19,841 nt of DNA, from the IMG/VR virus record IMGVR_UViG_2541047861_000012, positions 1 to 19,841 of that record; one strand, given 5' to 3'. The position numbers and the translations under genes are program-made. The notes below the pieces were generated by a model that saw only the letters and a program-made list of their open reading frames with translations, did no database searches and was not told the DNA's origin. Positions 1 through 14,397 of this stretch are shown piece after piece. Each line of letters starts with the position of its first letter. Positions within the stretch are counted from its first letter, which is position 1. The stretch comes from a virus. Taxonomy: Duplodnaviria > Heunggongvirae > Uroviricota > Caudoviricetes.

Positions 1-516
1 ATGAAATTTAAAAAATGTCTTCTGCCTGTGGCAATGTTAGCGTCATTCACTCTGGCAGGATGCCAGTCAAATGCTGATGATCATGCCGCCGATGTTTATC
101 AAACCGATCAACTGAATACCAAACAAGAAACTAAAACCGTTAATATTATTTCCATTCTTCCCGCAAAAGTTGCCGTAGACAACGCCCAAAATAAACGGAA
201 CGCACAAGCCTTCGGCGCGCTTATTGGCGCTGTCGCTGGCGGTGTTATCGGCCACAACGTCGGGTCTGGCAGCAATTCCGGAACGACGGCAGGTGCAGTT
301 GGCGGCGGAGCTGTAGGCGCGGCAGCGGGTTCTATGGTGAATGATAAAACCTTAGTGGAAGGTGTTTCTTTAACATATAAGGAAGGCACCAAAGTGTATA
401 CCTCCACCCAGGTGGGTAAAGAGTGCCAGTTTACGACAGGTTTAGCCGTTGTTATTACCACGACGTATAACGAAACGCGTATTCAGCCAAATACCAAATG
501 TCCTGAAAAGAGCTAA
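1..516 (+). CDS. outer-membrane lipoprotein with glycine-zipper domain (SlyB/YcfJ-like)
   Basis: ATG at window position 1; lipoprotein signal peptide MKFKKCLLPVAMLASFTLAGC with lipobox LAGC; Gly/Ala-rich stretch GALIGAVAGGVIGHNVGSG...GAVGGGAVGAAAG typical of glycine-zipper lipoproteins; stop 514-516. Family call from motif recall only. Confidence 0.7.
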   Translation: MKFKKCLLPVAMLASFTLAGCQSNADDHAADVYQTDQLNTKQETKTVNIISILPAKVAVDNAQNKRNAQAFGALIGAVAGGVIGHNVGSGSNSGTTAGAVGGGAVGAAAGSMVNDKTLVEGVSLTYKEGTKVYTSTQVGKECQFTTGLAVVITTTYNETRIQPNTKCPEKS

Positions 517-531
517 TAATCAGGAGGAGTC

Positions 532-1071
532 ATGAAGAAAGTTTTTCTTTGCGCCATCTTAGCCTCCTTAAGCTATCCGGCTATCGCCTCATCATTGCAG
601 GATCAACTCTCGGCTGTCGCAGAAGCGGAACAGCAAGGTAAAAATGAAGAGCAAAGGCAGCATGACGAATGGGTCGCGGAGCGCAACAGGGAAATCCAGC
701 AAGAGAAGCAACGTCGCGCAAACGCCCAGGCCGCGGCTAATAAAAGAGCGGCAACGGCAGCAGCGAATAAGAAAGCTCGTCAGGATAAACTGGACGCCGA
801 AGCCACTGCGGACAAAAAACGCGATCAAAGTTATGAAGATGAGCTACGTAGCTTAGAGATTCAGAAACAAAAACTGGCGCTGGCGAAAGAAGAAGCCCGC
901 GTCAAGCGCGAAAACGAATTTATCGATCAGGAACTGAAGCACAAAGCTGCGCAAACCGATGTGGTGCAATCTGAAGCTGACGCAAACAGAAATATGACTG
1001 AAGGCGGTCGCGATCTGATGAAAAGCGTGGGTAAAGCAGAAGAGAATAAATCAGATAGCTGGTTTAACTAA
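532..1071 (+). CDS. secreted/periplasmic coiled-coil protein of unknown function
   Basis: AGGAGG Shine-Dalgarno at 522-527 just upstream of ATG 532; signal peptide MKKVFLCAILASLSYPAIASS; remainder Lys/Glu/Ala/Gln-rich and coiled-coil-like; followed by terminator 1110-1144. Confidence 0.65.
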   Translation: MKKVFLCAILASLSYPAIASSLQDQLSAVAEAEQQGKNEEQRQHDEWVAERNREIQQEKQRRANAQAAANKRAATAAANKKARQDKLDAEATADKKRDQSYEDELRSLEIQKQKLALAKEEARVKRENEFIDQELKHKAAQTDVVQSEADANRNMTEGGRDLMKSVGKAEENKSDSWFN

Positions 1072-1109
1072 ACGATGTTAGTAACTTCAAACCTATAATT
1101 CTTTAGGAT

Positions 1110-1144
1110 AAAAAAACCCTCTGTAGTAACAGAGGGTTTTGTTC
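1110..1144. terminator. bidirectional rho-independent terminator
   Basis: 8-bp stem CCCTCTGT (1117-1124) / ACAGAGGG (1129-1136), 4-nt loop, flanked by A7 (1110-1116) and TTTTGTT (1137-1143). This gives a U-tract on both strands, between convergent gene 532-1071 (+) and the lysis operon ending at 1290 (-). Confidence 0.65.
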
Positions 1145-1289
1145 ATTCATAGTGCAGGGTCAAATCATTCCCACTCAATTATTTACGATAACCATAACCA
1201 ATTGAGTGATAACATTTTTCCAAAGATGAATTTTTCCCATACCGTTTTATATACCGTCACCGGAAATCAGTACCATGAAAAATGCCATG

Positions 1290-1772
1290 CTATCTGGTCA
1301 GGGTGTCGTACTGTTTTTCGCAGACTCTTCCGGCTTCGGCTGCCCGGTCAGCATACTCTGCCAGTTGTCTGTTTCTCTCGAGAGATTTGCTGAGCACGTC
1401 GGCAAGCAAAACTCCGGTGTCTGCGGCTGACGACCCAGCGCCGACAATGGCGTTATAGTGCCTGAGCTGCTCACGGATGGCAACGAGCTGTTGCTGCAAC
1501 CGGCCAGCGCGAGCGGCAGCATCAAGAGCATCATTGCGCGCCTGGTCGATCCTCTGCTGCGATTCACGTTCATTGATCGCTTTCTCCTGTTCGTAGTGCT
1601 GACGAACTCTCTCATCTTCAGTTTTGCGGTCTTCTTTCGCCTGAGCATACCCGGCGTCGTACTGACGACTGCCGTGCACATTCCAGGCAACAACTCCTGA
1701 TGTGGCAAGAACAGCAAGCATCGCCACGATAATCAAATGTTTCCAGTATGCTTTTACGAATGCCCAGATCAT
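1290..1772 (-). CDS. i-spanin (Rz-like inner-membrane spanin subunit)
   Basis: Start ATG overlaps endolysin stop (ATGA, 1769-1772); N-terminal TM helix [18 protein letters not shown] then charged coiled-coil periplasmic domain; contains an embedded +1-frame lipoprotein ORF; sits directly after the endolysin. Confidence 0.75.
1298..1534 (-). CDS. o-spanin (Rz1-like outer-membrane lipoprotein) embedded in +1 frame of the i-spanin gene
   Basis: Internal ATG-ATG (1534-1529) within ORF 1298-1717 gives about 78 aa [17 protein letters not shown]... with lipobox LALAGC; Pro/Ser/Thr-rich mature part with Cys residues; fully inside the Rz-like gene (stops at 1298-1300 versus 1290-1292). Exact start uncertain. 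Confidence 0.6.
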   Translation of the reverse strand: MMLLMLPLALAGCSNSSLPSVSSSGTITPLSALGRQPQTPEFCLPTCSANLSRETDNWQSMLTGQPKPEESAKNSTTP

Positions 1773-2398
1773 ACAGCCAGCACCTTACTGGCAATGATGT
1801 ATCGGGCGCGGCGGTCATCAATGCCGTTCCGGCCACCATTGATAATCAGAGTTACACGTGCAATATCGCCGGTATACTTCATGCAGCCTTTGCTGGAGAA
1901 GAACCAGGCCGCGCTACGGGCCGCGTATTCGTCCTGTGCCAGCAGTTCAGGATTCTCCAGCAGGTCAACTTTCAGACCGTTTCCGCAGTCACGATAGTTA
2001 TTCAAGCCGGTAATCTGGATAAGTCCGCGCCCACGGTAGTTCCAGCCATCACCAGGGGCATTGTTCCCCATGCGTTTGCTGTACACCAGATTGGCGATAG
2101 CGCGCTGTCGCTCAAGTGGTAATGCTGCTTCACCAGCACGGCGACCCAGTGCATTAGCCTGCCCCTGGGTGAGACGCCCAGCCCGAACGAAGTTAGCCAG
2201 TCCGGTGACACTGTAGTTGAAATTTTCCTGCAACCGGGTGAAGCCCCCAGACTCATGCCCGACCTGAGCAATAAACATTGCCTGATCTTCGGGTTTGCTG
2301 ATTCCAAACTCTTTCATCGCAGAAGTTATATGCAAGAACCAGCGTTCGGCCAGCGCCTCGCTAATACCAGCAGCACGCTGGAATTGTTTAATCTCCAT
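1769..2398 (-). CDS. endolysin, glycoside hydrolase family 19 (chitinase-like)
   Basis: Motifs [12 protein letters not shown] and [16 protein letters not shown] match the GH19 catalytic core; start overlaps the upstream holin-like gene by 11 nt; lysis-cassette context. Confidence 0.85.
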
Positions 2399-2696
2399 GT
2401 TTAGACCTCGTTATTTTGAAAATTTGAACGACGTTACCGCGAGTTTTAAGAACCGCAGCAAGCATGACAGCGTTAATAATGACCTCAGATAAATCCACAG
2501 CCATTGGCGTACGTAACCAGATTGCATAGGCGACTCGAACAGGAATACTGGCCGCAGCAACAATCAGGAAATAAGCAAGCCATCCTCCCCACCTTCGGTG
2601 TTGAGAGCCGTTACGCCGGAATGTGACAACGCGAATTGCTATGCCAGTGCAAATAACTGCATTGGTGATAAGCAAAAAAAACTCATGCGTTACCAT
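2388..2696 (-). CDS. holin-like small membrane protein (second holin or antiholin)
   Basis: 102 aa; hydrophobic segments [54 protein letters not shown]; basic C-terminal tail; overlaps 2683-3087 by 14 nt and the endolysin by 11 nt. Confidence 0.55.
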
Positions 2697-3087
2697 CGTC
2701 TTTTCTCCCCGGAATTAACTCGCGTGGATTATCGGAAAGGTGATAGAGCCATATACCAATACGCACAGCGACAATTGCTGACACGAATGCGCCTGCAGAG
2801 AAAACAATCCCTTTTTCAAAAGAGTCCTGCGTGATGGTAGGGATCAGGCTAGCTATGCCGATAAGAATTGATGCTGCTGGTTTGTAAAAGAGAAGGCCGC
2901 AAAGAAAGCTGAGCATCGACAGGAGCACCCGGCGACGGATGGGGTACTCTACTGCAGAGGTAACAAAAATTACCGCCCCAGCCAAAGCCCCTAAAGCAAC
3001 CTCCGGAGGGACACCTGCAATAACCGCAGCAAGAGAACCAAAACTAAGCAACTGATTTAATTGCTCACTTGTTACTTGAGCAGACAT
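2683..3087 (-). CDS. holin (class I-like, 3-4 TM segments)
   Basis: 134 aa; AGGAG about 5 nt upstream of ATG 3087 on the minus strand; several TM helices and charged C-terminus [13 protein letters not shown]; first gene of the lysis cassette. Confidence 0.65.
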   Translation of the reverse strand: MSAQVTSEQLNQLLSFGSLAAVIAGVPPEVALGALAGAVIFVTSAVEYPIRRRVLLSMLSFLCGLLFYKPAASILIGIASLIPTITQDSFEKGIVFSAGAFVSAIVAVRIGIWLYHLSDNPRELIPGRKDDGNA

Positions 3088-3368
3088 ACTTTCTCCTGTT
3101 TACTATCTATAAGCCAGTCAATTATTGATGACTAAACCCGCATAGTAAACCATATATGAATCATTATTGTTCCATATCATATATCTCAATAAAAGTACTA
3201 ATTATTTTACAGAACGAGCCAGCAGAGTGGGGGCAGTTGTACAGGAACCATAGACTTAATTTTGTATTTAATAATGCTATGGTGTAATAAACCTGAACAT
3301 GTATTTAAAATACGTACTGATTCATGATAGAATTCAAAGATAACTTTTCACCAACTCCGTTTTTGATA

Positions 3369-3395
3369 CCCGCAAAATATTGCGGGCTTTTTTTT
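3369..3395 (+). terminator. rho-independent terminator oriented for plus-strand transcription
   Basis: 7-bp stem CCCGCAA (3369-3375) / TTGCGGG (3380-3386), loop AATA, then C plus T8 (3388-3395). The minus-strand RNA would have no U-tract after the hairpin (reads UAUCAAAAACGG). Confidence 0.5.
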
Positions 3396-6300
3396 AACGT
3401 TCTTCCAGAGACTGAATCCGCTCTTTTATCTTATCCATTTCTCTGCGCTGCCATGCTGCCTCGATATAGAATAAGAGATCAGGTCTGACCCCCCATCTAG
3501 ATCCTGCTGGCGTTATTTCAACGCGCTCAATGATGTCTTCCATTACCATCACTGGATTATCATCCTCATCAACAATGATGCTCCCGTCATTATCAGTCAG
3601 CTGTATTTCCCTTTGGCCAGTAATGACGTCATCATATACTGCGGGATAATCGTCATAGCAAAGAAAGGCATAGCGGCATGTTGTGCTTTCTTCTTCCATG
3701 AGTCCGTGAGAAATAAGAACATCACGAAGTTGCTGCGCGATTACACCATGATGTATCCTCGCCCCTTCTTCTCCCTTTATAGCGACAGCGTTCAGCCATT
3801 TATAAGCGATATACCTGACGTCACCCCAGGCATCCAGCAATGCTTCGTCAGGAGAGACCGGCTCTGTCTTTAATGTTCCGTCACTGGTAACCACAGGATT
3901 GGAGCCAAGATAAACTGTCGAGAACCTGTTTCCCGGACCACCAAGAGCATTTACATTATCAAGATAAGGTTTAACATCTCCGTTCTCAAAAAGATGTTCG
4001 AGTGCGTTATATACCGCGCGACGTGGAGTACTGCTTCCGGAACCATGCAACGTTATCATTGCACCATCTGCTGAAGACGTTGTTTCACCGCCGCTAACGA
4101 TTAATCTCTGAGCGGTAACATCATCAGACGGTACTTTCTTCGCAATAATGGCGTAATTGCCCTCCAGTTTGACTTCCGCGCGAACTTGTCCTGATGTACC
4201 TGCATGGACAGTCAGTGACTGGACGGCAACATCATCTGTGAAATCAACGGGTACAGGAACCGTCCTCACGCCGGACGTCGACATAAAAGTAGGAAGCGTT
4301 CTGTTAGGAGTGGCTCCGTAGACAAAATCCCTTGAAACAAATTCTTCCTGTTTAATTTTCACCCTGAAACAATACAAATCAGCCGGGTGACCATCGTGAA
4401 CATAAGGATATTTTCTGTTGTTATCCCCTATGCTCCATGGGTTTAGAAAGTCTTCCCCACCGAAAATGTAGTACAGCCAGTTGTCTTTGATACAAACTGA
4501 ACCAACACCAACCGCAGAGTTAACTATTCCGCCCTGATAAATCTGATCAGTAACATTAACCCACTCTACATTATCCAGACTCCACTCATTGACGTTAACT
4601 CTGGTCATAAATGTTCTTGGATAATTTCCTGCATAACGGTTATCAGGTTCTCCTCCTTCCCACTCACCAAATGCGCGCTCACTGCCAAAAATAATCAGCT
4701 CATCGCCAACTTTGGCAAAAGGAAGGTTTGAGTGATGAACATTATTTGGGAAGCGAAGAGAATTCCATGATGCACCTAAATCAGAGCTTCTGTGCAATGA
4801 ACTACCGGGTTGAGTACTTAATGTCCCCCTGGTCGTCAGATACAGAATGCCATCATAATATTTTACACATGGCTCAGATGCATTCGCCTCATATTCTGCA
4901 GGTATGCGTCTGCGAACAAAGCTACCAGGAGAACCGAAAGCATCAGAGAAATAGAGTATCCCAAGCTCGCGTGGACCAATATCACCATTATGGTAGCCAA
5001 CAGCAAAACTGTTATCGCTAATCGTCGCAAAACTGTGAATCTCAGTAACAGGAGTGCTTCCGTCAACAAAAGAAGAAATAGTTCCAAGACTGGTTTTTCT
5101 CCATGGTGACGAGTGAAATGATGTACCAAAACTCCAGTATCTACCCTCGTTATTCTGATCCACATCCTGAGTATTTTGCGTCGTAACTGTAAAAGTATTT
5201 TTATCAATAACAGTAGTCACCGTCATATTCCCGGTAACACCTGTAACACCAGAGTTTGAGAAGTTGACAAAATCACCAGCAAATAATCCGTGATCAGTAA
5301 TGCGAATATAAGCGACTTGCTGATTTGCTGCTTTCGTTATACCACCATAAACGCGAAGGCTGCGACTCATTGGACGATCCCACAACTCTGCAACCTGCAG
5401 TTTATTTCCGCGCACGGTCCGCGTCTCAATTACAGCAAAAAGGCGATTTCTGACAACCCCCATACTCATGCAGTGATAGTTAACTGTGGGATAGTTTTCA
5501 TGTAAATCTGTAAGCCATTCCGGCGTTGTCCAGGTCTTCCCGTCATCTCCTGAGCGAACCCATGCAACATGGAGGTTATTTACACCATGGCGGTCTCCAG
5601 CCATAAAAGGCGCATAGATGACATTGTCATATACAAACGTTTTATCCTGCGTCCAGGCGTTGTACCACGGTGTATCTGTAATTTTAAATAACTCTCCCTG
5701 GATAAAATCTTCAGAAGCATAAAAAAGAGGCTGACCCGGTATTCTCTCAAATAAAAAACGAGCATTTTTAAATCGGCTGACATCCGGAAGAGTTGATACT
5801 TTAAAAGTAAGCCCTAATCCGTCAATTTTATAACCTGGAGATGAGGCTTCAAGGCACGCGCTTATTGCAGTGGAATCGTCATTTATACCATCACCAACAG
5901 CTCCAAAATCTTTGGGGCTAATAGCATCACGCATTTTATCCTGGAACGTTCGGTATACTGCCCCAGAACCATACTGAATAAACCAACCAAAACCACCAAC
6001 AACCCCGGCGATTGCAGCATCGACATAATTACGCATTGAGCGATTATTTACAGCGTCCTGTTCAAGTGATGGATCTGCAAGGTTAGAAATTCTGTTTTGC
6101 TTTGCATCGTAATATTTTGCAAGCAAAGATGGTTTCATCAATGCACGTCTGAACCATCCAAAACATTGCTGGATCAGCATCGTCAGGTAGTCAAAGGCAT
6201 CTTCATGCACTTCGGGGAAAAACTTTCCCTGATTGCGAAGGTCTGTCTCCTGCACTACATCAAGCACACGATCTATCGTAATTCTCCATCCAGTAGCAAG

Positions 6301-6513
6301 CGGCGACGGAAGAACCACAGAACCGCCACTATAAGTGCCCGCCCCAGTTACCGTATAACCGGTATCCAGAACCAATTCTGTTACGTTCCCGTTCAGGTCA
6401 GACACCTGAACAACCAGGTCGGATTTTCTGAAAATTCGAAAAGTATACGGAAACGATGTCGTAACGCCGTTACCGGTGTATTCGTTGTGGTCAACTTCGG
6501 TTGAGACCGTCAT
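3394..6513 (-). CDS. tailspike/tail fibre with depolymerase domain (T7 gp17-like N-terminal anchor, Asp-box sialidase-like region, C-terminal S74 intramolecular-chaperone domain)
   Basis: GGAG 7 nt upstream of ATG 6513; residues about 10-115 resemble the T7 tail-fibre N-terminal particle-binding domain; pectate-lyase-like motif DFGAVGDGINDDSTAISA (201-219); Asp boxes SGDDGKTW (321-328) and SSDLGASW (576-583); predicted autocleavage site VVTS/DG (877/878) followed by a chaperone-like C-terminus. Substrate not determinable by eye. Confidence 0.85.
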   Translation of the reverse strand: MTVSTEVDHNEYTGNGVTTSFPYTFRIFRKSDLVVQVSDLNGNVTELVLDTGYTVTGAGTYSGGSVVLPSPLATGWRITIDRVLDVVQETDLRNQGKFFPEVHEDAFDYLTMLIQQCFGWFRRALMKPSLLAKYYDAKQNRISNLADPSLEQDAVNNRSMRNYVDAAIAGVVGGFGWFIQYGSGAVYRTFQDKMRDAISPKDFGAVGDGINDDSTAISACLEASSPGYKIDGLGLTFKVSTLPDVSRFKNARFLFERIPGQPLFYASEDFIQGELFKITDTPWYNAWTQDKTFVYDNVIYAPFMAGDRHGVNNLHVAWVRSGDDGKTWTTPEWLTDLHENYPTVNYHCMSMGVVRNRLFAVIETRTVRGNKLQVAELWDRPMSRSLRVYGGITKAANQQVAYIRITDHGLFAGDFVNFSNSGVTGVTGNMTVTTVIDKNTFTVTTQNTQDVDQNNEGRYWSFGTSFHSSPWRKTSLGTISSFVDGSTPVTEIHSFATISDNSFAVGYHNGDIGPRELGILYFSDAFGSPGSFVRRRIPAEYEANASEPCVKYYDGILYLTTRGTLSTQPGSSLHRSSDLGASWNSLRFPNNVHHSNLPFAKVGDELIIFGSERAFGEWEGGEPDNRYAGNYPRTFMTRVNVNEWSLDNVEWVNVTDQIYQGGIVNSAVGVGSVCIKDNWLYYIFGGEDFLNPWSIGDNNRKYPYVHDGHPADLYCFRVKIKQEEFVSRDFVYGATPNRTLPTFMSTSGVRTVPVPVDFTDDVAVQSLTVHAGTSGQVRAEVKLEGNYAIIAKKVPSDDVTAQRLIVSGGETTSSADGAMITLHGSGSSTPRRAVYNALEHLFENGDVKPYLDNVNALGGPGNRFSTVYLGSNPVVTSDGTLKTEPVSPDEALLDAWGDVRYIAYKWLNAVAIKGEEGARIHHGVIAQQLRDVLISHGLMEEESTTCRYAFLCYDDYPAVYDDVITGQREIQLTDNDGSIIVDEDDNPVMVMEDIIERVEITPAGSRWGVRPDLLFYIEAAWQRREMDKIKERIQSLEER

Positions 6514-6650
6514 GTTAAATCTCCAGATAGTCGCAGCACCCGTTGCGCCGCATATCTGGTCATTCTATTACCTAAAAAACCACATATGGATAGAAAGACT
6601 GTGAATACGAATAGATATTACCTTTCGGGTAATTTGCAAAACGTGCTGGA

Positions 6651-6687
6651 TAGCAAACAAATTATTTGCTACTGTATAAATATACAG
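6651..6687. promoter_or_regulatory. operator-like tandem inverted repeats upstream of gene 6710-6967
   Basis: TAGCAAA-N7-TTTGCTA (6651-6671) immediately followed by CTGTATA-AA-TATACAG (6672-6687, contains TATAAAT), ending about 10 nt before the GGAG of gene 6710. Confidence 0.3.
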
Positions 6688-6709
6688 TTATTGCATGGAG
6701 AATATTAAG

Positions 6710-6967
6710 ATGCAGCAGTATCACTATCCACTGGAAGACGGATTTACCGAAAGGATTCACACGCCGGGAGGCGTCAGGTCACTGGTGGAGGGATCGCACT
6801 TGATGAAATTACTCCGGGATCTCGATAAGGATGGATTTAATGTCGATGGCCCACTTGCCGAACTGACTGCACTGATTAACTACGTCACCAGCTCACAGAT
6901 GTCTATGCAGGATCTGCAAACACATCTCGACTATTGTGCCGAACAATTACGAAAACAAACCAGATAA
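6710..6967 (+). CDS. small stand-alone homologue of the antirepressor C-terminal module
   Basis: GGAG at 6697-6700, 9 nt before ATG 6710 (the in-frame ATG at 6695 has no SD); 85 aa; SHLMKLLRDLDKDGFNVDGPLAELTALINYV...MQDLQTHLDY aligns with the shared C-terminus of 7283-7978 and 8987-9925 (SLLMNLLNQLQEDGHDVSGAAAELTTMFCYIV...LRDIQTHAEY). Confidence 0.55.
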   Translation: MQQYHYPLEDGFTERIHTPGGVRSLVEGSHLMKLLRDLDKDGFNVDGPLAELTALINYVTSSQMSMQDLQTHLDYCAEQLRKQTR

Positions 6968-6997
6968 GATTTGAAATTACCAATAGGAGTGCTTATA

Positions 6998-7014
6998 TTT
7001 ACCTTTGCGGTAAA
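6998..7014. promoter_or_regulatory. operator-like palindrome TTTACC-N5-GGTAAA (copy 1)
   Basis: TTTACC (6998-7003), TTTGC, GGTAAA (7009-7014), nested inside a longer inverted repeat GGAGTGC (6986-6992) / GCACTCC (7023-7029). Identical half-sites recur at 8151-8167. Confidence 0.3.
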
Positions 7015-7105
7015 TTTACATCGCACTCCTCTTGTGCCATAGTAATCGGGCACTGGCAAAATCCAGTGCCGGGATTGGCGTCCCGGATTACTAAAAGGCG
7101 CATTC

Positions 7106-7125
7106 ACCGCGCAAGCGGTTTTTTT
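7106..7125 (+). terminator. weak rho-independent terminator in the leader of the Bro-N antirepressor gene
   Basis: Short stem ACCGC (7106-7110) / GCGGT (7115-7119), loop GCAA, then a T-run to 7125; preceded by hairpins at 7049-7070 and 7069-7086 that share bases. Confidence 0.3.
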
Positions 7126-7282
7126 ATGCGTATAGCACGGCCACATTCGTATTATGGTGGGCTGTGTGGGGGCACCGAAAGGTGCGCCGGGTCCTTTTAG
7201 CCGGTTACGCCAACCCTGCACAGTTCACCACCAACCGATTGGCGTCGGTAGTGGTGATTAACCAGACTAAAAGGTAACCACT

Positions 7283-7978
7283 ATGACAGCTACAAAAAGC
7301 ACGTCCATTTTTTCTTTCGAATCCCAAGCCGATATACGGGTAATCGTCATTAATGGTGAGCCATGGTTTATCGCTTCAGATGTTTGTCGGGCTATAGGCA
7401 TAGCAAACCATCGAGATGCTGTTCGAAAACTTGATGATGATGAGAAGGGCGTCGCTTCAACCGACACCCCTGGCGGTGAGCAAGAATCGATCATCATCTC
7501 CGAGTCAGGCCTCTACACACTGATCCTCCGCTGCCGCGACGCAGTGACACCAGGCACTATCCCCTACCGCTTTCGTAAATGGGTTACAGGTGAGGTTCTT
7601 CCTCAGATCCGCCGCACCGGAAGTTACATTAAAAACTCGCTCCCGCAGGAAGAACGCATAAAGATGGTTGCCGACCAGGTAGCCAACGCCACAGCATCAG
7701 CAGTGATGCAGGCAATGAAGATAGAGAACAAAACCTACAGTGCCCCGCTGAAGCCCGGCTACCGCAGTTTGATTCACTCGCCGTCTGGTGTTCTCGGCCT
7801 GACGGAGAACTCACTGCTGATGAATTTGCTGAACCAGTTACAGGAAGACGGGCATGACGTATCGGGCGCGGCGGCGGAACTGACCACCATGTTCTGCTAC
7901 ATCGTCGGTGTGAGTAAATGCCTGCGTGATATCCAGACTCACGCGGAGTACATCAACGACAAAGCAGGATTCTTCTGA
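7283..7978 (+). CDS. antirepressor-like protein (Bro-N N-terminal domain plus shared antirepressor C-terminal module)
   Basis: AAGG about 8 nt upstream of ATG 7283; Bro-N signature FESQADIRVIVINGEPWFIASDVCRAIG...ESGLYTLILRCRDAVTPGTIPYRFRKWVTGEVLPQIRRTG; last 77 residues identical to those of 8987-9925. Confidence 0.8.
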   Translation: MTATKSTSIFSFESQADIRVIVINGEPWFIASDVCRAIGIANHRDAVRKLDDDEKGVASTDTPGGEQESIIISESGLYTLILRCRDAVTPGTIPYRFRKWVTGEVLPQIRRTGSYIKNSLPQEERIKMVADQVANATASAVMQAMKIENKTYSAPLKPGYRSLIHSPSGVLGLTENSLLMNLLNQLQEDGHDVSGAAAELTTMFCYIVGVSKCLRDIQTHAEYINDKAGFF

Positions 7979-8000
7979 CGGGCGGCGGCACAGGGATGTG
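7745..8000. repeat. inverted repeat copy A (3' end of gene 7283-7978 plus about 22 bp)
   Basis: Reverse complement matches 8964-9220 at about 93% identity (16 mismatches in the 231 coding nt plus one indel in the 3' flank). Similarity begins exactly at the first codon of the shared 77-aa module. Confidence 0.85.
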
Positions 8001-8150
8001 CCTTTAAATAATTCTGTACAGATTGCAGACTGGGGGTGAATAGCGTACTATTACCTCACGGGTGATCCATAGCGATTAGGCACCGATACAGGAGGAGCCC
8101 ACATGAGAAAATTTGACGAGTACGAAGGCGTTTAACATTCGGATAGTTCA

Positions 8151-8167
8151 TTTACCCTAATGGTAAA
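8151..8167. promoter_or_regulatory. operator-like palindrome TTTACC-N5-GGTAAA (copy 2), about 40 bp upstream of gene 8207-8842
   Basis: TTTACC (8151-8156), CTAAT, GGTAAA (8162-8167); TA-rich -10-like sequence TATATATTAT at 8187-8196; GAGG SD at 8197-8200. Confidence 0.35.
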
Positions 8168-8206
8168 TCCCGCTTAAAGAAGCATCTATATATTATGAGG
8201 TGATGT

Positions 8207-8842
8207 ATGCCACAACAACTGCTGAATCCGGCAAAGGTAACTGAGGTTTTCGCTCATCTGAACGAAACTCCAGACAACCGCGCCCTGTATTCAGAGTTAG
8301 TGAACGGCAACGATGTCACATCTGATGTCAAAGGCGTTTCTCTGGCTCCTGGATACCGCGTTGTCCGTGTAGACGATCGTAAGAAAGGCGAGATTCCACA
8401 GGCGCACTTTGAACTGTCATTGATAAATGACCTCACCGAAGAGGTAGTGTATTACAATCGTGTCATTATCCAGCCTGACAGCTATCTTAACTGCCGTCCT
8501 GTCACGCAGATATTGGTATGGAGAACCCAGAAGCCTAAGCATCGTGCTGTGCTTCATGATTTCGCTGGCATCATCTTCATGAACTACCTCTTGGAACGGT
8601 ACGATATCATCGTGTCTGATCGCAACCAGACTCATGAAGGCATGTCGTTCTGGCAGGCTCGCATGTATGACGCACTGGAACTTGGCCTCCATCTCTATGG
8701 TTACGACATGATGACATGCGAACTTATAGAGATGAATAACGAGGAAGAACTTGAGAAAGGTGAAACCTGGTTGTGGGGTGATGCGGAAAACTTCCAAAAC
8801 AGATTGGCCATAATTTCAAAGCATAAGCTGCCAATAAAATAG
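8207..8842 (+). CDS. hypothetical protein, 211 aa, no recognisable domain (orphan moron between the two antirepressor genes)
   Basis: ATG 8207 with GAGG SD 6 nt upstream; uninterrupted 211-codon ORF; no TM segment or signal peptide; own strong terminator at 8851-8871; lies inside the segment bracketed by the 256-bp inverted repeat. Confidence 0.7.
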   Translation: MPQQLLNPAKVTEVFAHLNETPDNRALYSELVNGNDVTSDVKGVSLAPGYRVVRVDDRKKGEIPQAHFELSLINDLTEEVVYYNRVIIQPDSYLNCRPVTQILVWRTQKPKHRAVLHDFAGIIFMNYLLERYDIIVSDRNQTHEGMSFWQARMYDALELGLHLYGYDMMTCELIEMNNEEELEKGETWLWGDAENFQNRLAIISKHKLPIK

Positions 8843-8850
8843 TTCTTTAA

Positions 8851-8871
8851 GCCCGCGCCGCGGGCTTTTTT
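8851..8871 (+). terminator. rho-independent terminator of gene 8207-8842
   Basis: GC-rich hairpin GCCCGCG...CGCGGGC (8851-8865) followed by T6 (8866-8871). Confidence 0.7.
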
Positions 8872-8910
8872 GTGTCTGCGGATTCCCGCCCGGGCGGCGG
8901 TGGCATTCGT

Positions 8911-8935
8911 TAAAAACAAGGCCGCGAAAGCGGCC
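8911..8935 (-). terminator. rho-independent terminator of the arc-ant operon
   Basis: Stem GGCCGC (8920-8925) / GCGGCC (8930-8935) with GAAA loop; on the minus strand the hairpin is followed by UUGUUUUUA (plus 8911-8919). A further palindrome CCGCCCGGGCGG (8886-8897) lies between the two convergent terminators. Confidence 0.6.
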
Positions 8936-8963
8936 TGTGACATGTCACGCTAGTTTCGTTTTG

Positions 8964-9220
8964 CACGTCCCTGTGCCGCCGTTCTGTCAGAAGAACCCTG
9001 CCTTGTCGTTGATGTATTCCGCGTGCGTCTGGATATCACGCAGGCATTTGCTCACACCAACGATGTAGCAGAACATGGTGGTCAGCTCCGCCGCCGCGCC
9101 CGATACATCGTGCCCGTCTTCCTGTAACTGGTTCAGCAGATTCATCAGCAGTGAGTTCTCCGTCAGGCCGAGAACACCCGACGGCGAATGAATCAGACTG
9201 CGGTAGCCTGGCTTCAATGG
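8964..9220. repeat. inverted repeat copy B (3' end of gene 8987-9925 plus about 23 bp)
   Basis: Partner of 7745-8000; see copy A. Confidence 0.85.
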
Positions 9221-9925
9221 ATAACCATAACATTTTGTCTGTGTTTTAATTGCCTCACGAAGCGCATCTAACATCTTGACTGCCACTTCATCATTCTCTG
9301 ATGCAGATCCAGCAGGGAGATACTCCCCTTCAAGCGGAACCCGAGCAACAAGAGACAACGCTTCGGCAAATTGATCTTCACCAATTTCTTTGTACGAACA
9401 GCCAAAATGAGATTTCAGTGACGACCACATGGTGATCATCGCCTTAGCCTGTTTTTCTTTTGGCAGAGACTGACCGCGACTCATGACGAGTTGTTTAATG
9501 GCTTCCTGCTGTTCAGTTGTTATTTTACCCGGCAACGCCTTTTTAGCTTTGCGTGGGTTAACCACATGGCCTTTAGTCCAGTACTCGTAGAGCACATCGT
9601 CACACTCTTCCTGATACTGGATTACCTTGTCGCGGATTTCAGGGCGGACTTTGTTAGGGCTGATGCTGTTCAACCAAGCTGCCAATTTTCGTAAAGCCAT
9701 ACAAATCATGGCTTGCACCCCACCGGCAGAAGGTATGGTGATTTCCACCATACCCTTCGAGAAGCGTTGAGAAATCTTCTTATGTTGAGATTTCCAGTCT
9801 AGCCCCATTCCCTCAACGATAGGTTTCATTGGGGTATACGGTTCGCCGTTGTGATTGACAACATAAAGCTCTGCGCCGTGGAATGGCACGTTGATAGTAG
9901 ATACTGCTGTTGCTATACTCGTCAT
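8987..9925 (-). CDS. ant: antirepressor (Ant-like; AntA/P22-Ant-type N-terminal domain plus shared C-terminal module)
   Basis: 312 aa; follows the arc-like gene on the same strand after a 72-bp spacer; N-terminal region INVPFHGAELYVVNHNGEPYTPMKPIVEGMGLDWKSQHKKI resembles phage antirepressor N-terminal domains; C-terminal 77 aa identical to 7283-7978. The symbol is given by position and domain analogy to P22 ant. Confidence 0.8.
   Translation of the reverse strand: MTSIATAVSTINVPFHGAELYVVNHNGEPYTPMKPIVEGMGLDWKSQHKKISQRFSKGMVEITIPSAGGVQAMICMALRKLAAWLNSISPNKVRPEIRDKVIQYQEECDDVLYEYWTKGHVVNPRKAKKALPGKITTEQQEAIKQLVMSRGQSLPKEKQAKAMITMWSSLKSHFGCSYKEIGEDQFAEALSLVARVPLEGEYLPAGSASENDEVAVKMLDALREAIKTQTKCYGYPLKPGYRSLIHSPSGVLGLTENSLLMNLLNQLQEDGHDVSGAAAELTTMFCYIVGVSKCLRDIQTHAEYINDKAGFF
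9891..9919 (+). promoter_or_regulatory. candidate sigma70 promoter for an antisense (sar-like) RNA
   Basis: -35 TTGATA (9891-9896), 17-bp spacer, -10 TATACT (9914-9919); predicted start near 9926, i.e. opposite the ant start codon (9923-9925). Confidence 0.4.
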
Positions 9926-9999
9926 GTCGTTAATTCCTATACGTAGTTTTACGATACTGAAGCCCTGACGGTCTGGCCACCGTGGGGCTTCGCTGTTTT
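9926..9999 (+). ncRNA. predicted sar-like antisense RNA covering the arc-ant intercistronic region and ant ribosome-binding site
   Basis: Transcript predicted from promoter 9891-9919; ends at stem GAAGCCC (9959-9965) / GGGCTTC (9985-9991) with inner stem ACGG/CCGT, followed by GCUGUUUUA (9992-10000). About 70 nt, same size and topology as P22 sar RNA. Confidence 0.35.
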
Positions 10000-10165
10000 A
10001 TGCCACGCTATTCTTCTCACCAGTGAGTCCATACACTTTCCTCAGCTGATAGATAATCTCTGTATTGAACTTTCGGCATTCTTTTTCGCCATTTCTTTCA
10101 ATAGCTAACTTCACATCGTCCGGAAAACGAACTCGTCGTTGACACATCTCTTTTGCTTTTTGCAT
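9998..10165 (-). CDS. arc: Arc-like ribbon-helix-helix repressor
   Basis: AAGGAG SD 7 nt upstream of ATG 10165 (the longer ORF from 10186 lacks an SD); 55 aa MQKAKEMCQRRVRFPDDVKLAIERNGEKECRKFNTEIIYQLRKVY... matches the Arc/MetJ RHH pattern (compare P22 Arc RWPREV...NGRSVNSEIYQRV); first gene of an arc-ant operon. Confidence 0.8.
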   Translation of the reverse strand: MQKAKEMCQRRVRFPDDVKLAIERNGEKECRKFNTEIIYQLRKVYGLTGEKNSVA

Positions 10166-10179
10166 TTCATATCTCCTTA

Positions 10180-10248
10180 GCCCCACCGTGGGGCAAAATA
10201 ATTGTCACACCGTGCGTCATTGATGTCAAGCACACGGTGAGGCATACT
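10180..10248. promoter_or_regulatory. immI-type control region: overlapping divergent promoters with repeated CACCGTG/CACGGTG operator heptads
   Basis: Near-palindrome GCCCCACCGTGGGGC (10180-10194); CACCGTG at 10208-10214; CACGGTG at 10233-10239; a fourth copy GCCACCGTGGGGC at 9976-9988. Minus-strand promoter: -35 TTGACA (complement of 10224-10229), -10 GACAAT (complement of 10201-10206). Plus-strand promoter: -35 TTGATG (10220-10225), -10 CATACT (10243-10248). The heptad core matches the CCACGGTGG core I recall for the P22 Mnt operator. Confidence 0.55.
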
Positions 10249-10285
10249 TCAATCATTGCAAGTAACTCAATATTTGGTGAAGAAC

Positions 10286-10717
10286 ATGAGCAGAGAAGAT
10301 CCACAACTAAGGATCAGACTTCCCGTCGAAGTAAAAGAAAAAATAGAAATTTCTGCAAAAGCCAATAAGCGATCAATGAACGCTGAAATAGTACAACGTC
10401 TTGACACCAGCTTTCTGAAAGATATTCATGAAGATGACGTAATTTCTGCTTATGAAGCAAAAATCATTGCAAACAATGCACGACATGAAATATCAAATAT
10501 TATTTTCAAAAGAACCTTTAATGAAATTAATAAGAAAATAACACTTGGACATACAAGTTTTTATATAAACCTTAATGACCTTGAACTGGAATCACTTGCA
10601 GATAATGATTACCAGATCATCTTTGAAAAAACATTTAATAGGCTCAATGAACTAGGTTACATCATCTGTGAAAACTCATGGGATGCAGATGGTTTTGGAA
10701 TTGAAATACCTGAATAG
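10286..10717 (+). CDS. mnt: Mnt-like ribbon-helix-helix repressor with a novel C-terminal extension (chimeric)
   Basis: ATG 10286 preceded by GGTGA (the ORF track begins at TTG 10256); N-terminus MSREDPQLRIRLPVEVKEKIEISAKANKRSMNAEIVQRL closely parallels P22 Mnt (ARDDPHFNFRMPMEVREKLKFRAEANGRSMNSELLQIV); 143 aa versus 83 aa for Mnt; the extra acidic C-terminal part lies in the AT-rich block. Confidence 0.75.
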   Translation: MSREDPQLRIRLPVEVKEKIEISAKANKRSMNAEIVQRLDTSFLKDIHEDDVISAYEAKIIANNARHEISNIIFKRTFNEINKKITLGHTSFYINLNDLELESLADNDYQIIFEKTFNRLNELGYIICENSWDADGFGIEIPE

Positions 10718-10807
10718 GAAGAACAAAAGGCGTGTACATATTACACGTCTTTAATACAATTGAAAAACGCCACATTACTGATGTATGTTACAACAAGGAG
10801 CGATATT

Positions 10808-11371
10808 TTGAAAACCATATCTATATTAAAGGTTGCATTAGGCGTCGCTATTATTTTGACTCTCTCAATATTGTTTTATTTTTACCACAAACAAACTGCT
10901 ATTGCTCTTGATAGTCACGCGGCAAACTCATTTTTCTCAGAGTACATAGTGCCGCTATCAGGAAGCGGTATAACAAATAAATATACTGACTATGACATCA
11001 AATATGGAATTGATGATGGGGAGACTATTGTATTACATGTAATCATTAAAAACCTAATGACAGTAAATAAAAATACAGACTTCAACGATAAAAATACAAT
11101 ACATCACAACAACAGCAAAACATTAATTTCTTATAGTAGCAACATCTATACGGATAAATACCTAAAATACATATCAGAAGATACAATAAAAGAAACCCGC
11201 GAAAAGTTAAAAAACATATATTGTGCATCCGGCAGTTTTCACAAATTATCGCCGCAAGAGCGTTTATTCTACGAAGCAAGAAAACAACGTAAGTCAATAA
11301 TATTACATTATTATGCTGATTCAGGGGAGACACTCATATTTAATATTGGGGTTTCCCCTGAATCATGCTAA
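10808..11371 (+). CDS. single-pass membrane protein of unknown function in the sieA position (candidate superinfection-exclusion/defence moron)
   Basis: AAGGAG (10795-10800) 7 nt before in-frame TTG 10808; alternative in-frame starts at ATG 10781 and TTG 10760 (ORF track). N-terminal TM helix ISILKVALGVAIILTLSILFYFY then an Asn/Lys/Tyr-rich soluble domain; very low G+C; stop 11 bp from the stop of the convergent 1004-aa gene. Confidence 0.65.
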   Translation: MKTISILKVALGVAIILTLSILFYFYHKQTAIALDSHAANSFFSEYIVPLSGSGITNKYTDYDIKYGIDDGETIVLHVIIKNLMTVNKNTDFNDKNTIHHNNSKTLISYSSNIYTDKYLKYISEDTIKETREKLKNIYCASGSFHKLSPQERLFYEARKQRKSIILHYYADSGETLIFNIGVSPESC

Positions 11372-11382
11372 AGGTGTTTAAC

Positions 11383-14300
11383 TCACCGCATCACCGGATC
11401 CACTTGGTTTATTAGTGGCGCAATCCAGAACAGGTTATTGCCGGGTATCAGGGTTCGGACATTATGCACAATACGATCACCGGCATCACCATTCAACACT
11501 CCTGAGGTCACATCAATGATGCTATCCGCAAGACCAAATGACGGTCCGAATAGAGATCCTACGAATCCACGACTGGCATACCTGGACTGTGTGCCAGTGC
11601 CAAATAAAGCCCCCAGCCCAACAGCACCACCAGTCGCCTTTTCAGCCATGTTGTTATATTCCATCAATGGCCCAAGAATACCGGATCTATCTATACCCTC
11701 AAGCACCAGCTTCTCTGGTGACCAGTCAACATTTTTCCCTTTCGATGCTTCTTTAAGCGCATAGACCAGTGAGCCAAGAGCAATCTGAAATGCAGTGCCA
11801 TAATAAAATTGCGCAGTTCCTTCCTGTAACCCACCAAGTAGCGCACGGTTGTATGAAGCCGTTGTGAATGATTTAAACTGAAATATCGTTCGCCCCATTG
11901 GAGTACTCGCCCATAAAGGTGTGTCACCAATACCGGGGGTGATGATAGTGTTATTAACGTCTTTCAGAACCGCTGACTGGAATACTCCGGCAACGTACTG
12001 ATCGTCCCATTTATCAAAGTTACCAATGTGCCATCCATCAATTACCTCACCATGTTTCTCGAACTCACTGCGAATACGCGCAGCCATATTGTCGTTGATA
12101 CCGAGTTTTGCCATGCGACGTGCAGAAAACGCACCAGACAAAATACCGTCTGACGTGAGCATTCCGTTCATGGATTTGTTTATGTCATTAAATCGATCCA
12201 TGAGTGTCAGCTTGCCGAAGGCATCAGTAATTCGCTCCATTCCTGCTTCGACTGCTGTTGTCCTGGAAGAACTGTCAACAAGATCACCAATTGCACGAGA
12301 ACGTGAATGTAGTACAGTTTCCAATCCAATCCCCATCTTCAACATCTCTTCTTTGCTGGCCTTAAATGCCGGTGATTGGGATATCTGAGAAGCATAGCCT
12401 TTCATGGAGTTACGGAAACCATTAACCATAACCCCTCTGGCCAGATCTGGAATAGCTGATACTGTCATTCCACCGAGTTTGGTCGTGAAGTTCACATCCC
12501 GCAGAAAAGCGCCAGCACGAACAAAAAACGAAGACGGGTCATCAGGCATACCATATGTACCAACAAGACGATCGCGTAATGCTGTTATGTCTCTGAGATC
12601 ATTTGCTCTTGATTTTGAAAGTCTGGACTGTTCTTTCCGTAATTCCTTTTCGTACTTTCGCATTAATGAATCGAGTTTACCCTGAGGAACAACTTCACCA
12701 TTGCTCTCATAACGTGCTTTCAGATTTGCCACACTTTCGTCATATTTCGCCTTTATTTTTTCAGGCACTTCCCGTAACAGACTGTCATATTCGTCCTCAA
12801 TTAATTGCAGACGCTCTGTCATAGTTCGTTTGCCAAATGTTCTCGTCAACTCAATTTCTGCTGCCGCTTCACGGATATGACGTTGTAGAACGTAATTCAC
12901 ATCACTTTCGAGATAATCCCTGATAAGACTATCAGGCACATTTAATGTTCTTTCTTTCGTACTACCTGCGGCTTTTACAGAAAATACGCTGACAAAATCC
13001 TGTGGAACCTTAGCACCAGTAATTTTATTAATTACGATATCCGCTGCAATTTCAGCATCCTCAGGATCCAGTGTTTTATTGCCTCTCGACCACCAGTCAA
13101 CCAAAATACGTCGAAATTTATCGCGTTCACTGATTATTTTTCCAACTTTATATATACGTGGGAAATAGCTTGCCTGGCCTAATGCTTTCAGTTCTTCATC
13201 TGGCGGCAATAAACCAAGCTTTTGCATTTCAACCTTCACCCGATTTAATACAGTTCGCATCGCCTGCGCCGTTTCCTGAACAACAGGATTAGCATGCACA
13301 TCACCGCTTCGCATAGCATTCCCAACCTGCTGACGAAATGAATCAAAACTCATGTCACCACCATCAGCTTTATACTTTGCGTATGCCTGTTTATTTCCGA
13401 CAACAACAGCAGCTTCTTCACGCTGCCATCCACGTGTACGGGTTTCTACAGCTACCGGTGTTTCAATCCCCCTTTCATTTCCTTTAAGGGTGAAATTATT
13501 TTCGGCTAACTCCAGCGTTGTTTTTCGCACTGTCTTGGACGGAGACTCCATTAACCTTGTCAAAGGAGTAAGATAGCTCCCTGCTTTCCATGCAGCCTTT
13601 CCAACCACCCCACCGGAAACAGGGGTTAAATCATCCAGAGTCGCTGTATCAATTTTCATAGCACCAACACTACCACCATCAGAAAGCGAAGCGGCAGCCC
13701 TGTCAGTCGCTGATGTAATGCTCATATTATCAAGAGCATCAGCAACCTCACGCGTGGCTGCAGCCCGGACGGATGGCGAAAGCGCAACACCAGCACTGGC
13801 AAACACGCCGCTCATCATCGCACCCGCTGCAATGTGAGCGGCACTTTCACCCCATGAGCGTGTTATTTGCTGATTATTCAGCACAACCTCGCTTAATGCT
13901 GTACCGGCTGCACCAATCGCAATCTGTGAGCCAATACGCGCCAGTGCCCCTCCTTGAGCACCGGGGATAAACATTGACGCAACAGTAACCGGATCCATTC
14001 CCGCAGCAATACTGGCAAGGGTTCCAACTACGCCAGCATCAGACAATAAACGTCTGTCTTCATTTTCATCATCTATCTGCTGCTTAATCCACGCCGTTTC
14101 CTCTGGCGATCGGGAATCTGCAAATTTCGCCCCCCAGTATTCATAACCGTGCAACTCATTTTTATCAGCATATGGGTTATAACCTTCGACCGGTTCAAAC
14201 TGTCTGGCTGGTCGGAAAAAACCAGCCAGAATATTGTTCTGTCGCATTGCAGCCCCCCATACGGAAGGCTCCGGTGGCAATGGCTCAGGATTAGCCCCTT

Positions 14301-14397
14301 CCGGAAGGGCAACATCAAACCCAGTTTGTTCCGGCAAAACATTACCTGACGGGATCAGTCCGTTATTAAGATCTTCAGCTTGTGCATAAACTGGCAT
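11383..14397 (-). CDS. internal virion/ejection protein (large, gp16-like position)
   Basis: 1004 aa; start ATG overlaps the stop of the upstream gene by 1 nt (TAATG at 14395-14399); Gly/Ala-rich hydrophobic segments typical of podovirus core/ejection proteins; last large gene before the immI-like island, as gene 16 is in P22. Confidence 0.75.
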   Translation of the reverse strand: MPVYAQAEDLNNGLIPSGNVLPEQTGFDVALPEGANPEPLPPEPSVWGAAMRQNNILAGFFRPARQFEPVEGYNPYADKNELHGYEYWGAKFADSRSPEETAWIKQQIDDENEDRRLLSDAGVVGTLASIAAGMDPVTVASMFIPGAQGGALARIGSQIAIGAAGTALSEVVLNNQQITRSWGESAAHIAAGAMMSGVFASAGVALSPSVRAAATREVADALDNMSITSATDRAAASLSDGGSVGAMKIDTATLDDLTPVSGGVVGKAAWKAGSYLTPLTRLMESPSKTVRKTTLELAENNFTLKGNERGIETPVAVETRTRGWQREEAAVVVGNKQAYAKYKADGGDMSFDSFRQQVGNAMRSGDVHANPVVQETAQAMRTVLNRVKVEMQKLGLLPPDEELKALGQASYFPRIYKVGKIISERDKFRRILVDWWSRGNKTLDPEDAEIAADIVINKITGAKVPQDFVSVFSVKAAGSTKERTLNVPDSLIRDYLESDVNYVLQRHIREAAAEIELTRTFGKRTMTERLQLIEDEYDSLLREVPEKIKAKYDESVANLKARYESNGEVVPQGKLDSLMRKYEKELRKEQSRLSKSRANDLRDITALRDRLVGTYGMPDDPSSFFVRAGAFLRDVNFTTKLGGMTVSAIPDLARGVMVNGFRNSMKGYASQISQSPAFKASKEEMLKMGIGLETVLHSRSRAIGDLVDSSSRTTAVEAGMERITDAFGKLTLMDRFNDINKSMNGMLTSDGILSGAFSARRMAKLGINDNMAARIRSEFEKHGEVIDGWHIGNFDKWDDQYVAGVFQSAVLKDVNNTIITPGIGDTPLWASTPMGRTIFQFKSFTTASYNRALLGGLQEGTAQFYYGTAFQIALGSLVYALKEASKGKNVDWSPEKLVLEGIDRSGILGPLMEYNNMAEKATGGAVGLGALFGTGTQSRYASRGFVGSLFGPSFGLADSIIDVTSGVLNGDAGDRIVHNVRTLIPGNNLFWIAPLINQVDPVMR

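Follow-up and report, generated by a model that had tools for sequence, protein, structure and literature searches.

The regulatory sites treated here have their closest described relatives in the epsilon15-like phages. The epsilon15 record (NC_004775) annotates seven ATTACC-N5-GGTAAT sites as protein_bind 'repressor / lysogeny', and dyads of this kind are scattered at promoters in both epsilon15 and SPC32H, in the rep/cro region as well as between the tailspike and small antirepressor (ant) genes. The SPC32H Ant protein is an experimentally studied small antirepressor that has been crystallised with its repressor, Rep (PDB 5D50), and the summarising passages on the work of Kim et al. (2016) in PMC9638917 and PMC9986798 state that a Rep tetramer binds palindromic sites and that an Ant tetramer dissociates Rep from DNA. 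The present subject is a 19,841-nucleotide stretch of a caudovirus (IMG/VR record IMGVR_UViG_2541047861_000012, positions 1 to 19,841; the whole of it is called the window), which carries two copies of the palindrome TTTACC-N5-GGTAAA, at 6998-7014 (dyad 1) and 8151-8167 (dyad 2). On the strength of sequence comparison, both dyads are probably operators of the prophage master repressor Rep, a family that comprises epsilon15 gp38, phiV10 p40 and SPC32H Rep. In the same comparison they are new members of the annotated epsilon15 operator family, situated at two predicted promoters that epsilon15 and SPC32H lack.

The locus further resembles SPC32H in its predicted repressor family (PDB 5D50, 5D4Z), in a small Ant that is 88% identical, and in an SOS box before the small ant gene. 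In contrast, epsilon15 and SPC32H possess neither the isrK-C4-Bro-N antirepressor operon nor the cargo slot of the window, and it is because this operon and slot are missing that operators at isrK and cargo promoters are not annotated there. Dyads 1 and 2 also differ from the epsilon15 type in having the minority flank T...A (TTTACC...GGTAAA) instead of A...T, and the operon predicted to be under Rep control here itself encodes an anti-Rep domain. Three other systems deserve comparison. In the immI operon of phages P1 and P7 (C1 operator Op51 - c4 - icd - ant), a C4 antisense RNA precedes the antirepressor gene, and an operator of the primary repressor overlaps the operon promoter; the former is also found here, and the latter is predicted. 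The P1 primary repressor likewise has many operators scattered over the genome. However, the C1 site is an asymmetric 17-bp element as opposed to the symmetric 15-19 bp dyad, the predicted repressor here belongs to another family, no icd homolog was identified, an IsrK small RNA (sRNA) has been added upstream, and the antirepressor is a Bro-N domain fused to an SPC32H-Ant-like domain. The P1 C1 operator itself was rejected as a candidate, since its asymmetric consensus, which we take to be ATTGCTCTAATAAATTT, had no match in the window with up to three mismatches.

The isrK-orf45-anrP operon of Gifsy-1 (Salmonella) has the same order of IsrK with its terminator, readthrough into a C4/STnc1160-like RNA or short open reading frame (ORF), and then an antirepressor. 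According to the passages on this operon in PMC4825925, the isrK promoter yields the sRNA as well as an mRNA that reads through into the antirepressor gene, the translation of which is turned on by IsrK in trans; the same passages mention no repressor operator at PisrK. In the window, by contrast, the isrK module is placed under a predicted Rep operator, and the version of this module in an Stx phage is without a TTACC dyad. Lastly, the immI region of P22 (mnt-arc-sar-ant) is alike in that a dedicated operator, together with an antisense RNA, silences the antirepressor. The window in fact has a true immI copy of the P22 type next to the dyads (8987-10717), but it differs in its ribbon-helix-helix (RHH) repressors and its CCACCGTGG-type palindromes, to which the dyads are unrelated.

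The dyads and their distribution

An earlier note on this DNA, made from the letters alone, had described two identical copies of TTTACC-N5-GGTAAA in intergenic DNA, the second about 40 bp before the gene that starts at 8207, and had found no further copies by eye. A pattern search of the whole window indeed returned TTTACCTTTGCGGTAAA at 6998-7014 and TTTACCCTAATGGTAAA at 8151-8167 as the sole exact matches, and not one of 200 dinucleotide shuffles of the window contained any match. Both dyads are intergenic, with dyad 2 ending 39 bp ahead of the ATG at 8207. The symmetry reaches one base farther on each side, resulting in 7-bp arms (ATTTACC-N5-GGTAAAT) at 6997-7015 and 8150-8168. The absence of further copies held for the strict 6+6 pattern but not for the 5+5 core TTACC-N5-GGTAA, of which a third exact copy was found at 6618-6632 (TTACCTTTCGGGTAA) and a copy with one mismatch at 8051-8065 (TTACCTCACGGGTGA). 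Altogether, the window contains four core sites with at most one mismatch (starts 6618, 6999, 8051 and 8152), as against 0.38 expected; none of the 200 shuffles reached four, and all four are clustered in 1.6 kb (6618-8166).

These sites were also scored with a position weight matrix (PWM) trained on 40 sites from phiV10, epsilon15, Tyrion and SPC32H, all of them outside the homologous regions. Dyad 1 (ATTTACC-TTTGC-GGTAAAT) scored best in the window with 22.5 bits, followed by dyad 2 (ATTTACC-CTAAT-GGTAAAT; 21.1 bits), the Rep-type operator at 6618-6632 between the diverging tailspike and small ant genes (20.7 bits), and, in rank four, the one-mismatch operator at 8051-8065 over the likely cargo promoter (16.7 bits), whereas the next-best position had 11.9 bits. 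As a control, 59.5 kb of E. coli chromosome had a single site at 15.5 bits, and nothing there reached 16 bits, as against four sites in the window that did. The central spacer base is T or A in both dyads, as it is in 78 of the 80 half-orientations of the training set. Thus, the shuffles and the independent PWM with its host-DNA control together rule out a chance origin of the dyads.

The motif is abundant in related prophages. Complete Uetakevirus relatives carry 8-19 sites, almost all of them intergenic and some in the rep/cro intergenic region. There are eight exact cores in phiV10 (0.04 expected). A complete prophage of E. coli O166:H15, which shares the ant and cargo genes of the window, has 19 sites with at most one mismatch where 0.93 would be expected, and the numbers in TL-2011b, Tyrion, epsilon15 and SPC32H are similar. 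In the closest complete relative, APEC E18055 (93% coverage, 98.7% identity), 13 of 16 sites fall in intergenic DNA, which makes up 8.9% of that prophage (binomial P = 9e-12). The locations across the relatives are the rep/cro intergenic region, a PL-like promoter downstream of rep, and positions before int, terS, the portal operon, the DUF1064 operon, ant and the cargo genes. In SPC32H, three copies stand in tandem between rep and the cro-like gene, and PL has another three; at other promoters of epsilon15-like phages, paired sites are 48-62 bp apart; and at PR of phiV10 the operator spans the -35 element and the spacer. The epsilon15 homolog of window site 6618 (19895-19911 of that record) is annotated as protein_bind 'repressor'. 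The TTACC half-site is common to all phages compared, the Reps of which range from 42% to 100% in identity. Text searches of the literature for the motif or for Uetakevirus operators returned nothing useful. The shared, operator-like character that the note had proposed is therefore supported by a family of nearly identical dyads at the promoters of related prophages; the regulators that it had named, an RHH protein or a host factor, fared differently, as described below.

Rep as the probable binder

Members of the Rep family have an N-terminal helix-turn-helix (HTH) and a C-terminal tetramerisation domain, and are inactivated by antirepressors, not by RecA. The phiV10 p40 protein (194 amino acids) aligned over its full length with SPC32H Rep (PDB 5D50_A; E 4e-42), and the segment NLVNRW in the N-terminal HTH is kept between the two. 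Both complete E. coli relatives, which also carry the rep/cro operators, have an identical repressor in their annotation (WP_000836290.1). Homologs of Rep were retrieved from 37 phage records only, all epsilon15-like save for one weak partial match, and the dyads were present in every complete phage with a Rep homolog that was scanned. Taken together, record annotation, the distribution of the sites and analogy strongly suggest that Rep recognises exactly this motif. Judging from complete relatives, the repressor gene of the prophage is part of an immunity region some 25 kb past the right end of the window, and it is for this reason that the earlier note missed Rep. When the phiV10-type repressor was overexpressed in phage ZX5, transcripts of the lysis genes went down by 99.97-99.99% (PMC9782041), which fits direct repression throughout the genome. 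In the mechanism that we propose, nearly every operon in this phage group would have one or two (A/T)TTACC-N5-GGTAA(A/T) sites over its promoter, and one repressor would silence the whole prophage genome directly.

Another regulator of the phage might own or share the motif, namely the Cro-like protein (phiV10 p41 / epsilon15 gp39) or the small regulator upstream of terS (epsilon15 gp49). In lambdoid phages, CI and Cro share their operators; moreover, some of the sites lie upstream of the late operons terS and portal, where a late regulator could act, and neither small protein has a Pfam match that settles its fold. Nonetheless, sites in tandem between rep and the cro-like gene are what is classically seen with a lysogenic repressor, the depositors of epsilon15 assigned the sites to the repressor, and it was the phiV10-type repressor that caused the above drop in transcripts (PMC9782041). 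Sharing by a Cro-like protein would, furthermore, supplement the binding of Rep and not replace it. We therefore regard ownership by either of these proteins as unlikely, and Rep stays the preferred candidate.

As regards the binders suggested in the note, two RHH genes of the Arc/Mnt-like type indeed lie within 2-3 kb of the dyads, at 9998-10186 (minus strand) and 10256-10717 (plus strand). Their module, however, has palindromes of its own, i.e., three CCACCGTGGGG elements at 9977-9987 and 10181-10193, at the RHH module promoters, which are probably the operators of the Arc/Mnt-like proteins; the core search of the window found no TTACC dyad in this module. The dyads are also equally frequent in phiV10, epsilon15 and SPC32H, the annotations of which contain no Arc or Mnt genes. 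A host factor is contradicted by the lack of enrichment in the 59.5 kb of host DNA, by the confinement of Rep homologs to epsilon15-like records, and by Stx phage PA28, which shares the host species but has a different repressor, and in which the isrK-C4-ant module is preceded by a plain TTGACG-17-TATATT promoter and no dyad. Binding of both dyads by an Arc- or Mnt-like protein of the island or by a host factor is thus extremely improbable, and neither proposal of the note was upheld.

Dyad 1 and the isrK-C4-antirepressor operon

Dyad 1 is embedded in promoter-like sequence on both sides. In an alignment of five phages its arms were invariant, while the spacers were TTTGC, GCAAA, TTTGC, TTTTC and TCACA; across phages with Reps of 45-100% identity, the spacer ranged over TTTGC, GCAAA, TTTTC, TCACA and AAAAT. 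A Klebsiella phage with a Rep of 45% identity has TTACCAAAATGGTAA at the equivalent place before isrK. On the left, a promoter scan detected the plus-strand element P(a), TTGAAA-17-TATATT at 6971-6999, which agrees with the consensus at 10 of 12 positions; the operator core begins with the T that ends its -10. All five aligned phages have a -10 placed in this way (TATATT, TATCAT or TATTAT), even where the left flank is unrelated, and the same register of -10 and core is seen at PL of phiV10 (TTGACA-17-AATTAT), at dyad 1 (TATATT) and at site 8051 (TACTAT). On the right, the scan detected the plus-strand element P(b), TTTACA-17-CATAGT with an upstream TG (7015-7043); GGTAAATTTACA and TGTGCCATAGT are conserved. 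The start predicted for P(b), at about 7050, is also position 1 of the Rfam IsrK model, and P(b) is the probable PisrK. Relative to this start the operator centre is at about -44, and the right arm of dyad 1 abuts the -35 of P(b) with a one-base overlap.

Downstream of dyad 1 and before the antirepressor gene are two predicted RNAs, both on the plus strand and both matched over the full model: an IsrK-like sRNA at 7050-7125 (RF01394; 77.9 bits, gathering threshold 50), which ends in an intrinsic terminator (stem 7106-7119 plus a T run), and a C4-type antisense RNA of the P1/P7 immI kind at 7150-7235 (RF01695; 77.7 bits, gathering threshold 45). A 35-codon ORF (7154-7261) overlaps the C4-like RNA, and its position equals that of orf45/STnc1160 in the Gifsy-1 isrK operon. 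The antirepressor gene follows at 7283-7978 (plus strand; Pfam Bro-N, E 2e-21; phrog_450). Residues 150-226 of its product matched SPC32H Ant (PDB 5D50 chain E; E 1e-13) and are 42% identical to the small Ant of the window. The DNA of ZX5 is 98% identical over window positions 6500-8003, which include the Bro-N gene, and overexpression of the ZX5 antirepressor ORF4, annotated as Bro-family, promoted the lytic cycle (PMC9782041). A Rep molecule on dyad 1 would cover the -10 and the start of P(a) as well as the edge of the P(b) -35, and would thereby silence the antirepressor operon together with the isrK and C4 RNAs; we infer that both P(a) and P(b) are repressed.

The same geometry could also be read as activation, such that Rep on dyad 1 would activate PisrK, as lambda CI does at PRM, with P(a) repressed, and the IsrK and C4 RNAs of the lysogen would hold antirepressor translation in check. 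The C4 RNA must be present in lysogens of phage P1, two tandem promoter-like elements flank the operator, and the operator centre, some 44 bp before the start predicted for isrK at 7050, is near the position of a class II activator. However, as the right arm abuts and overlaps the -35 by one base, a bulky tetramer should occlude it. In Gifsy-1, moreover, IsrK in trans activates antirepressor translation according to the passages cited above (PMC4825925), which would make activation of PisrK hazardous in a lysogen, and the secondary summaries, in the passages that concern Rep, mention no activating function of it (PMC9638917, PMC9986798). Activation of PisrK is, in our judgment, decidedly unlikely, and repression of both promoters by Rep is the reading retained here.

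It should also be considered that dyad 1 is the tip of a longer hairpin at 6985-7030, with the outer arms AGGAGTGC/GCACTCCT (-20.6 kcal/mol, z -6.0); the feature also covers L001 20485-20523 and L009 1632-1672. In phiV10, the hairpin is a perfect 18-bp stem (-32.5 kcal/mol, z -9.2) and its 5-nt spacer is inverted relative to ant; in the Klebsiella phage, the outer arms differ in sequence yet are complementary (GGGTT/AACCC). The extended hairpin may be the 3' structure of the small-ant mRNA. Dyad 1 might then be chiefly the top of a hairpin at the 3' end of that transcript, where it would terminate or stabilise the RNA or be a target of RNase III, and its likeness to dyad 2 would be secondary. 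The z scores in the window and in phiV10 and the complementary arms of the Klebsiella phage speak for such a structure, and the outer arms indeed occur only where the small ant gene is directly upstream. On the other hand, TL-2011b and relative L003, in which another gene is inserted upstream, lack the outer arms and nevertheless retain the dyad; there is no U-tract after the stem; dyad 2 and the sites 6618 and 8051 have no significant extended structure (z -0.1 to -2.3); and about 40 sites elsewhere share the core without being part of a hairpin. The hairpin would hence be an additional role at best, and as the main explanation of dyad 1 it is very unlikely; nor does a hairpin account for the dyad family at large.

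Dyad 2, the cargo slot and the antirepressor modules

At dyad 2, no sigma-70-like promoter was found by promoter scan or by eye, and we have therefore treated it as an auxiliary operator. A weak promoter-like site, TTGCAG-17-TACTAT at 8023-8051 (plus strand), was read by eye upstream; it agrees with the consensus at 8 of 12 positions and falls under the threshold of the scan. Its TACTAT overlaps the left arm of the 8051 operator with the register already described for dyad 1, and we infer from the sequence that it is the cargo promoter. The cargo gene itself (8207-8842, plus strand) encodes a protein of 211 amino acids that belongs to phrog_1349 (E 3e-78), of unknown function, and that had no match in Pfam or PADLOC. 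Between the two operators lies a ten-codon mini-ORF, MRKFDEYEGV (8104-8136), behind a strong AGGAGG.

Comparison of the relatives clarified the relation of the two operators. Site 8051 is conserved in position in L003, L006, L007 and TL-2011b, whereas dyad 2 is present in L003 and L007, absent from L006, and fused with the upstream site in L008 (E. coli SCU-125). In the same slot, TL-2011b has the upstream site alone, followed by a YafO toxin cassette, and L006 has the upstream site and the segment after it, then, with no dyad 2, a DUF4760 cassette. In L008 just one site, a hybrid, stands directly ahead of the same cargo gene as in the window; the left part of this site is 8051-like and its right flank dyad 2-like, and the 101-bp segment, conserved in several relatives, is missing there. 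These comparisons show a 101-bp segment bounded by two operators, and a dyad 2 that travels with the cargo gene. Our interpretation is that site 8051 and dyad 2 serve one promoter, the first as primary operator and the second as a downstream auxiliary operator, which matches the 48-62 bp pairs elsewhere and would suit a tetramer with two DNA-binding units. The pair would probably bind one Rep tetramer, or act as a roadblock, and Rep at the pair would keep the cargo gene off in the lysogen.

Several points weigh against the assignment of the dyads to Rep. The binding of Rep at these sites and its effect as repression rather than activation are predictions, drawn from record annotation, site distribution and analogy, and looping and the feedback loop described below are likewise predicted; the rep gene itself is outside the window. 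A Cro-like protein could share the sites. The centre of dyad 1 relative to P(b) is at a position that class II activators also use, and the larger hairpin around dyad 1 in some relatives points to a further role, in RNA or in DNA. Finally, dyad 2 has no recognisable sigma-70 promoter, and its spacing from site 8051, 101 bp from centre to centre, amounts to a non-integral number of helical turns.

The operon at dyad 1 is one of three antirepressor units in the window. The first antirepressor of the island is the small one of 90 amino acids (6695-6967, plus strand), which is 88% identical to SPC32H Ant (gene SPC32H_020). Directly 5' of it is a perfect LexA (SOS) box, CTGTATAAATATACAG at 6672-6687, and SPC32H has a LexA box at the equivalent place; the box and the Ant homolog together indicate that the prophage is probably SOS-induced via the antirepressor, and not through cleavage of the repressor. 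LexA was rejected as the dyad binder, as this box is the sole CTGT-N8-ACAG match in the window and is at neither dyad. The third unit is the P22-like module, with a convergent P22-type antirepressor, a P22_AR_N fusion, on the minus strand (8987-9925) and, antisense to the start of its gene, a sar-like RNA (9927-9994) with a borderline Rfam score of 44.8 bits (gathering threshold 43). The C-terminal 100 residues of this antirepressor are 84% identical to those of the Bro-N protein, and it is because of this common C-terminal anti-Rep domain that a 270-nt inverted repeat (7710-7979 versus 8986-9255; 89% complementary), with a further pair at 7983-8001 and 8963-8981, flanks the cargo cassette with its dyad 2; inversion or exchange of the cassette could occur between the arms.

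The three antirepressors, which share one anti-Rep effector domain, would thus stand under three controls, i.e., LexA for the small Ant, Rep with IsrK and C4 for the Bro-N fusion, and Arc/Mnt with the sar-like RNA for the P22-type fusion. Since Rep would repress a protein with an anti-Rep domain, positive feedback can be expected: any loss of Rep, possibly triggered by the LexA-controlled small Ant after DNA damage, would derepress more anti-Rep, and the outcome would be a positive-feedback latch, further gated by the IsrK and C4 RNAs. In addition, the breakpoints of homology with TL-2011b, L003, L006 and L008 are within a few bases of operators (6991/6993, 8063, 8148 and 8152), which suggests that the conserved dyads may act as junctions for the exchange of promoter-operator-gene cassettes. 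Whether all of this adds up to a three-input antirepressor relay with a feedback latch, in which the operators double as recombination junctions between prophages, is rather doubtful, and such a relay, undescribed for this phage group, is offered here as a tentative proposal.

The remainder of the window places these elements in their prophage. The region is 95-98% identical to parts of the Escherichia phages TL-2011b, phiV10, vB_EcoP_ZX5 and other epsilon15-like Uetakevirus members, and 1015 of 5426 complete E. coli genomes (about a fifth) gave megablast matches to at least part of the 2.5-kb dyad region; the best matches to the window in the collections covered 93-94% of it. The host genes yfgH and yfgI (1-1071) and the published att core ATTGAGTGGGAATGATT (1163-1179) show that the start of the window marks one end of a prophage inserted at the 3' end of guaA, as are phiV10, epsilon15 and ZX5. 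No tRNA-like element was found in the window. The att core is followed in order by the lysis genes, the tailspike gene, the 4-kb regulatory island and the virion genes. The tailspike (3394-6513, minus strand; 1039 amino acids) matched proteins of close relatives that are annotated with an endosialidase catalytic beta-propeller domain, a match that suggests a K1-capsule-specific phage. A protein of 203 amino acids encoded at 10760-11371 (plus strand; phrog_8033, of unknown function) had a faint PADLOC match to a TIR-like protein (ThsB; E 0.006), which is too weak to interpret.

Overall, the two dyads are a genuine finding that a known mechanism accounts for; through them, an annotated operator family gains members at new, predicted promoters, and no current concept is changed. 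If Rep does bind here, a single repressor acts directly at every operon, including two antirepressor-related promoters and the cargo slot. It would then be predicted that the cargo of the slot, be it the unknown gene, the YafO pair or the DUF4760 gene, is expressed on induction or infection and not in the lysogen, and that induction has a self-reinforcing step, because Rep would repress a protein with an anti-Rep domain. It would also be predicted that simply scanning for the motif suffices to map the regulon of any epsilon15-like prophage.

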